From IMG/VR virus record IMGVR_UViG_2571042621_000030: DNA of 4,895 nt. One strand, given 5' to 3'. The notes below the pieces were generated by a model. That model did not search any database and was not told the origin of the DNA. It saw only the letters and a program-made list of their open reading frames with translations. The position numbers and the translations under genes are program-made. This stretch comes from a virus. Taxonomy: Duplodnaviria; Heunggongvirae; Uroviricota; Caudoviricetes. Positions 2,649 to 3,012 of this stretch are shown here, in pieces. Within the stretch, counting starts at the first letter, position 1; every line of letters starts with the position of its first letter.

Positions 2649-2926
2649 TGGACTCCTTCGCGAAATATACGATTATTGACTGGATAGCATTCCTTCAGGT
2701 TTTGCTCATCTGGTTTTATATGGCTTACAGGAGTGGGCAGTGGATTGTCAGTGTAGCCTGTAGCAAGGGATGGCGTTGGTGGAACCGAAAGAATAAAAAA
2801 GCGCTGGCCTTGGATTCGTTTTACGAAGCATTCAATCTTAACAGTCTTCAGCCTGGTTATGTCATTGTAGTCACCACTCAAAGCGGCATGACCATTCAGA
2901 TTCATAAACCAAAAGAGGAAAAATGA
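2648..2926 (+). CDS. Small predicted membrane protein, 92 aa: one N-terminal hydrophobic helix followed by a basic Trp-rich stretch
   Basis: RBS AGGAGG (2634-2639) 8 nt upstream of ATG 2648, which overlaps the upstream TGA (TGATG). The hydrophobic segment YTIIDWIAFLQVLLIWFYMAY is followed by WRWWNRKNKK (positive-inside). The tracked ORF begins at GTG 2645, but ATG 2648 is better placed. Confidence 0.5.
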   Translation: MDSFAKYTIIDWIAFLQVLLIWFYMAYRSGQWIVSVACSKGWRWWNRKNKKALALDSFYEAFNLNSLQPGYVIVVTTQSGMTIQIHKPKEEK

Positions 2927-3012
2927 TGTGGCCTATATGTGTTAATTGCGGACGGATGTGCCTATCTGGATGGTGCCGAAAGTGCGACAAATGCACGAAG
3001 AAAAGACAATAA
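2926..3012 (+). CDS. Candidate cysteine-rich micro-ORF, 28 aa (MWPICVNCGRMCLSGWCRKCDKCTKKRQ); not in the supplied ORF track
   Basis: ATG at 2923 or 2926 overlaps the TGA (2924-2926) of the upstream gene; RBS-like AAGAGGAAAA at 2912-2921; TAA at 3010-3012. Six Cys in 28 residues with CxxC and CxxCxxC spacing. A terminator-like hairpin follows. Too short to call confidently. Confidence 0.3.
   Translation: MWPICVNCGRMCLSGWCRKCDKCTKKRQ

Follow-up and report, generated by a model that had tools for sequence, protein, structure and literature searches.

A 28-codon micro-gene for a predicted cysteine-rich metallopeptide in the early-left region of lambdoid prophages

Very small proteins built around two CxxC knuckles are known as stand-alone entities from haloarchaea, where one-domain C(P)XCG micro-proteins such as HVO_0758 carry a Cys4 set and many have been shown to bind zinc (PMC10716476, PMC11241148). 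As a caution, the second of these papers also shows that several proteins predicted to belong to this zinc-finger class fail to bind the metal (PMC11241148). In phage lambda, Orf73, a homologue of TraR, is encoded in the exo-xis region and expressed from pL 5–20 min after induction (PMC9239242), and a proposal cited in the same paper holds that the region influences the lysis-lysogeny decision and prophage induction. Here we describe a Cys-rich open reading frame (ORF) from this region, at positions 2926–3012 of a 4,895-nt stretch of Caudoviricetes DNA (IMG/VR record IMGVR_UViG_2571042621_000030), the whole of which is referred to below as the window.

It is very probable, in our judgement, that 2926–3012 is a genuine protein-coding micro-gene, belonging to a family of phage proteins of 24–29 aa that are kept under purifying selection, carried on a mobile cassette and predicted to be metallopeptides. 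On the narrower point, that the ORF is a real, translated gene with a functional peptide product, its sequence attributes leave us in little doubt: an open frame, an excess of synonymous change specific to that frame and initiation signals, the three hallmarks of a coding gene at this level, are all present.

The reading frame and its conservation

The features of the micro-gene are as follows.
2914–2919, + strand: Shine-Dalgarno (SD)-like AGAGGA (from the sequence)
2926–3012, + strand: micro-gene, 28 codons plus TAA, product MWPICVNCGRMCLSGWCRKCDKCTKKRQ (from the sequence, the ORF list and homologues)
2926–2991, + strand: conserved 22-codon core MWPICxxCGRxCxxxWCxKCDK, with Cys at residues 5, 8, 12, 17 and 20 (from the codon table, Nei-Gojobori (NG86) counts and blastn)
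2992–3009, + strand: lineage-specific tail CTKKRQ, holding the sixth Cys and basic residues
3014–3045, + strand: terminator-like hairpin 1 (stem-loop 3014–3035) with a T-rich tail
3046–3071, + strand: terminator-like hairpin 2 (stem-loop 3046–3065) with a T-run

The initial annotation had reported a 28-aa ORF with six Cys spaced CxxC-x3-C-x4-CxxCxxC, a ribosome-binding-site-like sequence ahead of it and a start overlapping the upstream stop. The spacing is exact in the window peptide, the AGAGGA is present at 2914–2919, and the TGA of the upstream DUF4752 gene (2924–2926) overlaps both candidate start codons of the sequence ATGATG. Initiation at 2923 would give 29 aa (MMWPIC...) and initiation at 2926 would give 28, with AGAGGA 4 nt and 7 nt away, respectively. 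We place the start at 2926, because every distant homologue has just one ATG ahead of TGG-CCN (MWP), an allele from the lambdoid group has ATT-ATG in place of ATGATG and the SD spacing is better; the homologous start is always MWPIC.

In the search for homologues, the peptide was compared by tblastn with 50,697 phage records, and back-translated pattern scans covered IMG/VR and metagenomes. With tblastn, near-identical copies were found in lambdoid and P22-like phages, and copies of 64–76% identity in the unrelated virulent phages Deseoctovirus C1, Skatevirus KFS-SE2, ST1UNAM, ZCEC08, CF-SP1 and the 154-kb Citrobacter phage Tr1, a myovirus. Kluyvera and 43 metagenome contigs, gut and food metagenomes among their sources, supplied more. 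The total stands at 34 distinct peptides from 39 distinct DNAs, all of them open, starting MWPIC and ranging from 24 to 38 aa, typically 24–29, the 38-aa member being a read-through product (contig L062). A scan of IMG/VR for the Cys/Gly/Arg/Trp skeleton, made without the N-terminus, recovered nothing but peptides starting MWPIC and obvious low-complexity noise; the motif therefore does not occur inside longer proteins, with which phmmer against 1.84 billion protein representatives agrees. Among complete E. coli genomes, 182 of 5426 (3.4%) carry the micro-gene. A scan of species representatives used the narrow pattern MWPIC[KV]HC, matched only Kluyvera sichuanensis and under-samples the spread across such representatives.

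Within the 22-aa core, 14 positions are invariant (M1, W2, I4, C5, C8, R10, C12, W16 and C17) or nearly so (P3, G9, C20, D21 and K22) in the codon table. The invariant residues are encoded by 2–5 synonymous codons (Ile by 3, Gly by 4, Arg by 5), and four of the five conserved Cys each use both codons, with Cys12 written TGC in 32 of 33 sequences. When the window was compared with 13 distant copies by the NG86 method, the in-frame proportion of synonymous differences (pS) was 0.8 to >1, and hence saturated, and that of non-synonymous differences (pN) was 0.10–0.21; in the other two frames, the same comparisons gave pN/pS of about 1 or more. Conservation has a period of 3. RNAalifold detected no conserved structure in the core (consensus −5.75 kcal/mol, 0 compensatory pairs), and Rfam had no match in the whole window. 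An unbiased blastn search of the 4895-nt window against C1 and KFS-SE2 found similarity only at 2926–2990, which is the core, and one begun from a locus in which the micro-ORF follows a TraR/DksA-type gene (group C) matched Tr1, ZCEC08 and CF-SP1 over the micro-ORF only. The pattern of substitution thus indicates that the 22-residue core is kept by purifying selection on the peptide. Conservation of the frame and Cys pattern in relatives had been put forward at the outset as the check on this ORF; in the 34 peptides, which come from unrelated temperate and virulent phages, the frame is maintained along with five of the six Cys, at saturated synonymous change. The early description of a six-Cys peptide with a basic tail needs narrowing, in that five Cys are conserved whereas the sixth and the basic tail lie outside the core and are confined to the lambdoid group. 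Tails differ by lineage (CTK[KQ]RQ, PSK, RG, KSW and others), K26Q being a common polymorphism.

The initiation signals are conserved in settings that otherwise differ. At least six unrelated genes precede the micro-ORF, namely those for DUF4752, TraR/DksA-type zinc-finger, DUF551-like, phrog_7798 and phrog_2510 proteins and a 213-aa membrane protein, and in nearly every context the upstream stop overlaps the micro-ORF ATG by 1 nt (TGATG or TAATG). After phrog_7798 (group B), the stop lies 1 nt before the ATG, without overlap. In group C, the micro-ORF directly follows the TraR/DksA-type gene (PF01258, E value 1.6e-8), to which its position would couple it in translation. The anti-SD duplex is −6.0 kcal/mol at the window, and a duplex of −6 kcal/mol or lower, 4–7 nt upstream, occurs in 26 of 31 distinct family contexts, against 12.7% of random ATGs at the same loci. 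Translational coupling to the upstream gene is strongly suggested by this anatomy. Shuffling (n = 500) yielded 0.002 ORFs of ≤40 aa with ≥3 CxxC motifs per shuffled window; the comparative evidence for a gene is far stronger than this statistic.

The gene has largely been passed over by annotation. In the RefSeq record of E. coli E2865, the stretch that separates the DUF4752 gene from the following gene carries no annotation, and the micro-ORF is also absent from the H19J and Kapi1 annotations; in the 40 listed of the 183 matching E. coli records, the match overlaps no annotated feature except the upstream gene, which is labelled DUF4752 in 39 of them and 'hypothetical protein' in the other. 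The claim that it was missing from the ORF track thus holds for RefSeq, whereas the gap in the track itself was a cut-off effect, the ORF being listed at a minimum of 20 aa. In E2865 (L001, 2827–2985), locus tags jump from EL389_RS17450 to RS17460 across the gap, which suggests that a gene model was once there and was later withdrawn. The same gene has been deposited as HK106_030 of phage HK106 (YP_007151700.1 / AFH20718.1; UniProt K7P872), a 29-aa 'hypothetical protein' that occupies the same place after a DUF4752 gene and differs from the window peptide in one residue (K to Q, in the tail). It is annotated from the upstream ATG, whereas the comparative data put the start one codon later. A few third-party annotation (TPA) records also hold the micro-gene. 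We found no description of the MWPIC family, nor of the function or family of HK106_030, in the searchable full-text literature. A further observation concerns protein clusters: the 29-aa peptide falls in a 90%-identity cluster whose representative is a TolC-like outer-membrane protein of 480 aa that has no relation to it. This is an artefact of clustering, and it keeps the peptide out of reach of searches run on representatives.

Predicted metal binding and alternative readings

The knuckles C5-x2-C8 and C17-x2-C20, 8 residues apart, are invariant or nearly so. A single-sequence AlphaFold2 (AF2) model, which carried one extra N-terminal residue, has beta-bridges and a mean predicted local distance difference test score (pLDDT) of 80.6; the BFVD model of HK106_030 matches it with a template-modelling score of 0.71 (E 4.7e-4). 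Judged by the model and the motif, a zinc-ribbon micropeptide, as suggested at the outset, is the best structural reading, and a Zn(Cys)4 centre is somewhat more probable than not.

A number of observations weigh against the interpretation offered here. The best profile match in the PDB (E 0.3) and the best Foldseek match (E 3) both fall on the zinc hairpin of the RNA polymerase III subunit RPC2, with ICkhCGRmClsgWCikC aligning without gaps to RPC2 VCDKCGLMGYSGWCTTC, and neither is significant. Other Foldseek matches, to LIM, PHD, FYVE, ribosomal zinc modules and HNH zinc fingers, have E ≥3 and are non-significant, the self-match to K7P872 excepted. Scans of Pfam, NCBIfam, PHROG and PADLOC returned no family above noise, and phmmer against 1.84 billion protein representatives returned no true relative, the sole match being an unrelated repeat protein (P0021), so that no function can be transferred. 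No constant partner gene was found among the contexts compared. The fifth conserved Cys (C12) is left unexplained by a plain Zn(Cys)4 site. Most homologues came from protein-level searches, which favour sequences that conserve the peptide, a bias that the blastn results mitigate. Within the closely related lambdoid group, recent polymorphism looks nearly neutral, with 8 non-synonymous types against 3 synonymous; P3L, G9R, C20Y and C20R are among the former and are knock-out-like alleles present at low frequency in prophages. In contig L077, a mosaic junction truncates the micro-ORF after codon 17 (WC, then TCARAYK...). Finally, the 1999 record of phage H19J (L002, AJ236875.1) has a 1-nt insertion at about 2126–2137 (ATGATGTTGGCC) that breaks the frame. 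The region is otherwise 99.8% identical to the window, and an error in sequencing is a more probable source of the insertion than a frameshift in nature.

Among other readings of the locus, the one that survives best accepts the peptide and gives its Cys a different task: an iron or Fe-S centre of rubredoxin- or desulforedoxin-like type, a bridged cluster in a dimer, or redox-active thiols or disulfides. The core conserves one Cys more than Zn(Cys)4 needs, its first knuckle is CxxCG, as in rubredoxins, and there is a weak match to Fer4_4 (E 5.7). We nevertheless regard this as unlikely: the Fer4_4 match is noise, at 8 bits against a cut-off of 24, the spacing is unlike the CX2CX2CX3CP of ferredoxins, the nearest gapless match in both sequence and fold is a Zn(Cys)4 hairpin, and a cytoplasmic location disfavours stable disulfides.

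Much less probable is a regulatory leader or terminal peptide, with ribosomes that stall or terminate near hairpin 1 controlling read-through to xis and int and the peptide itself being irrelevant. Here the hairpins matter. The terminator hairpin that had been noted after the stop is real, beginning 33 nt downstream; a second one, overlooked at the time, begins only 1 nt after the stop. This proximity, the presence of a terminator about 5–12 nt after the ORF in group B and DUF551-type contexts as well, and six Cys codons in 28, which recall the amino-acid-rich leaders of attenuators, would all suit such a system. In group C, however, there is no terminator, the ORF sits between two overlapping genes and the peptide is equally conserved. 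The non-Cys residues W2, P3, I4, G9, R10, W16, D21 and K22 are kept through synonymous change, a constraint for which a leader has no need; the minimum free energy fold keeps the two hairpins, neither it nor the centroid fold shows an alternative antiterminator pairing into the ORF, and covariation is absent.

That the true gene is an ORF in another frame, with the Cys-rich frame incidental, we consider hardly credible. Two such ORFs lie on the + strand, of 66 aa (2939–3139) and 33 aa (2946–3047). The former is widely deposited as a 'hypothetical protein', in many GenBank genomes under many accessions and on 271 contigs, and the latter is Dewey_CDS0021 of phage Dewey, with an 80-aa version annotated as mEp213_028. 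The 66-aa ORF is without a counterpart in groups B and C, whose sole open and conserved frame is the Cys-rich one, and it changes or vanishes where the downstream module differs, as in HK106. Both are probably spurious, because pN/pS in their frames is about 1 or more and the 66-aa ORF spans two terminator hairpins and runs into the ribosome-binding site and start of the next gene. We give as little credence to the ideas that the ORF arose by chance, is what remains of a larger zinc-finger gene or marks a conserved RNA or DNA element that is open by accident and codes for nothing: short ORFs are common (75 of ≥20 aa in the window) and RefSeq makes no call here, but every member starts MWPIC, none is embedded in a longer protein in IMG/VR or among the protein representatives, conservation is three-periodic at saturated synonymous sites with neither RNA structure nor an Rfam match, the SD and stop-start overlaps are kept in unrelated contexts, and recent transfer with artefactual variation is excluded by the codon table and blastn.

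The reading as a micro-gene for a metallopeptide thus remains the one that we prefer. It means that a gene present in several families of virulent and temperate phages is unannotated in the RefSeq records examined, and that other-frame ORFs, in all probability spurious, have been annotated over it in many GenBank records.

A cassette in the early-left region

Homology breakpoints flank the micro-ORF. The DUF4752 gene occurs without it (e.g. CEC13002), and in E. coli 98219 the remnant of an ASCH-domain gene replaces it before the same hairpins. In phage 933W, the hairpin linker lies behind a different gene; hairpin 1 accompanies the micro-ORF in more distant lambdoid contexts and in HK106, where hairpin 2 is missing. 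The clearest comparison comes from Enterobacter phage ENT1, an empty site in which the stop of a TraR-like gene overlaps the start of a NinX-like gene (GGGGGATATGATGGATTAC). In related group-C contigs, the same junction is filled by a 79-nt insert that starts at the micro-ORF ATG and ends with a second GGGGG-TGA-nGTGATG linker, which provides tail and stop together with the SD and start for the next gene. Filled and empty sites together indicate that this is a discrete cassette of 79–90 nt, moving between unrelated Enterobacteriaceae phages. Because the insert's copy of the linker supplies tail and stop, the lineage-specific tails look context-derived and the 22-codon core would be the functional unit; because empty sites exist, the micro-gene appears dispensable. 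The unit of mosaic exchange can on this evidence be as small as about 80 nt, at overlapping stop-start junctions.

Several further observations concern these boundaries. The junction GGAGGTGAAGTGATGGA(T/C)T and its relatives GGGGnAnnTGATGGATT recur between the DUF551 and DUF4752 genes (window 2636–2655), between TraR and NinX-like genes (L082, about 1490–1590; L243) and at micro-ORF boundaries, and a shared SD-stop-start linker of this kind may be a substrate for module exchange. Mosaic junctions can also fall inside or at the end of the micro-ORF, as in L077 and in L062, where the stop is lost and the frame reads into the 3' end of an ASCH-type gene. Of 5426 complete E. coli genomes, 2341 carry the 75-nt linker at 3008–3082, which comprises the micro-ORF stop, both hairpins and the ribosome-binding site of the next gene; 177 phage records (Shiga toxin (Stx)-converting, lambdoid and P22-like Salmonella phages) have it too. 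The genes upstream of it differ, and it belongs to no Rfam family. The linker may mark a boundary in the mosaic that has been conserved, serve the exo-xis region as a tandem terminator or be an RNA element of an undescribed kind.

The window is the early-left (exo-xis/ea) region of a lambdoid prophage, with the micro-ORF upstream of xis and int. Positions 2600–3400 are 100% identical to the Stx1a-converting phage Stx1a_11KH263 and to E. coli E2865, and every gene in the window is on the + strand. The features around the micro-gene are as follows.
552–1253, + strand: Ead/Ea22-like gene
Between the Ead/Ea22-like and DUF551 genes, + strand: two ORFs without a family
2061–2648, + strand: DUF551 gene
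2645–2926, + strand: DUF4752 gene, 93 aa, the upstream cistron (Pfam PF15944, E 1.4e-35; annotated in RefSeq)
3084–3383, + strand: next gene, 99 aa, phrog_3680, with an N-terminal CxxC...CxxC and a C-terminal domain in common with phrog_7798 proteins
Between the 99-aa gene and the terminator at 3576–3595, + strand: lambdap35-like small gene
3576–3595: strong intrinsic-terminator-like hairpin (8 bp, 5 GC, then TTTATT), directly upstream of xis
3626–3844, + strand: xis
3822–4895, + strand: int

A scan for promoters gave no promoter-like site from 2400 to 3700, and the micro-ORF is therefore taken to be an internal cistron of the early-left operon; it is also the last cistron before the two terminator-like hairpins. 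Elsewhere, its neighbours in temperate phages are early accessory genes; in virulent siphoviruses it closes a short operon of hypothetical genes, and in Tr1 it falls within a run of small hypothetical genes. A transmembrane helix is noted for the DUF4752 protein in the Kapi1 record, and the terminator at 3576–3595 has a weaker mirror hairpin on the minus strand.

The 99-aa gene at 3084–3383 is a neighbour of the micro-ORF with which a partnership is not demonstrable. The C-terminal ~45 aa of its product resemble the C terminus (...AIAAGKIPGVKLE) of a phrog_7798 protein whose gene lies ahead of the micro-ORF in C1 and KFS-SE2 (BLASTP E 4e-6; L006 921–1496), and in contig L139 the gene after the micro-ORF starts, by eye, much like the phrog_7798-like protein that precedes it in L073. 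The association of the neighbourhood with a shared C-terminal domain is partial. A 16-nt direct repeat (2935–2950 and 3210–3225) agrees at 14 of 16 positions; the copy within the micro-ORF specifies ICVNCG, and the one within the downstream zinc-finger gene ICLNCV. The repeat may be due to chance or to gene conversion acting locally on the two knuckles.

Possible role and relation to known systems

From its position, the micro-gene would be transcribed within the early leftward pL (exo-xis/ea) operon and translated by coupling to whichever gene precedes it, through the 1-base overlap of ATG and stop and its own SD 4–7 nt upstream. The motif and the model suggest a peptide wrapped about a single metal ion, most likely Zn(II), with four of the five conserved Cys as ligands; these could be two CxxC knuckles 8 apart, as in a minimal zinc ribbon or hairpin, or the first four Cys in a knuckle of the form CX2CX3CX4C. 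A binding surface might be formed by the two invariant Trp together with Arg10, Asp21 and Lys22. We envisage a non-essential accessory factor, neither structural nor replicative, that would come into play at an early stage of lytic growth or induction and bind a macromolecule of the host or the phage, perhaps single-stranded nucleic acid or a host protein, for instance of the transcription machinery. A metallopeptide directed at the host is the most economical view. Binding to nucleic acid or the transcription machinery is ranked first among targets with low confidence, and any specific target that one might name is improbable. Its exo-xis location in Stx-converting and other lambdoid prophages would nonetheless make the micro-gene a candidate modulator of the processes attributed to that region.

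A more ambitious version of this picture is speculative and, in our judgement, improbable. It takes the core as an autonomous five-Cys metallopeptide and the gene as a self-contained cassette of 79–90 nt that would spread among temperate and virulent phages unrelated to one another by inserting at TGATG junctions, bringing or duplicating the SD-stop-start linker; the product would be a host-takeover factor directed against a conserved enterobacterial machine, with RNA polymerase, in the company of TraR homologues, as one candidate target and single-stranded nucleic acid, bound as retroviral zinc knuckles bind it, as another. If true, it would rank among the smallest independently folding and independently mobile proteins known. 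The family is in any case sharply delimited and, with a core of 22 aa, would stand at the lower size limit for a metal-binding fold that exists alone.

Several described systems invite comparison. The label DUF1244 (PF06844), attached to the identical peptide in TPA records (DAF65670.1 and others), is not borne out, since hmmscan to E 10 gave no match for three family members. The RPC2 hairpin (PDB 5fj8_B, 7ast_M) has the same C-x2-C-x8-C-x2-C spacing and shares CG, M and SGWC with the micro-ORF; it is, in contrast, a 17-residue element of a protein of 1100–1150 aa, lacks the middle fifth Cys and the MWPI N terminus, and homology is not implied.

The aromatic and basic residues of the CCHC knuckles of retroviral nucleocapsid bind unpaired bases. 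The micro-ORF peptide resembles the retroviral type (CX2CX4HX4C) in its first knuckle, CxNCG[KR], and in possessing an aromatic residue as well as flanks that are basic, whereas its first four Cys form CX2CX3CX4C, one residue shorter and without the His ligand. With this spacing, no His and no Pfam match, it does not belong to zf-CCHC, a family absent from the Pfam matches reported up to E = 10, although HMMER filters drop most matches weaker than about E 0.1. By analogy, the resemblance suggests binding of single-stranded nucleic acid through Trp stacking, as a lead rather than a membership.

TraR/DksA-type proteins, such as lambda Orf73, are likewise small Cys4 accessory proteins made early from pL and encoded in the same genome region. 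TraR itself is different in kind, with 73 aa and a coiled-coil that enters the secondary channel of RNA polymerase, and has no sequence relationship to the micro-ORF peptide, which gave no match to the TraR/DksA C4 zinc finger (PF01258; CxxC-x17-CxxC).

The haloarchaeal C(P)XCG micro-proteins are archaeal, of about 40–70 aa, and have two C(P)XCG motifs, whereas the micro-ORF specifies a phage-encoded peptide with a 22-aa core and five Cys. Its size agrees with theirs in class, but only the first knuckle (CVNCG or CKHCG) fits the motif, the second being CxKCD in all members, and it is not counted among them. By analogy, the two would nevertheless be the same kind of molecule, and the MWPIC peptides, as far as their sequences tell, form a new, uncharacterised family among the very small Cys-rich and presumably zinc-binding proteins.

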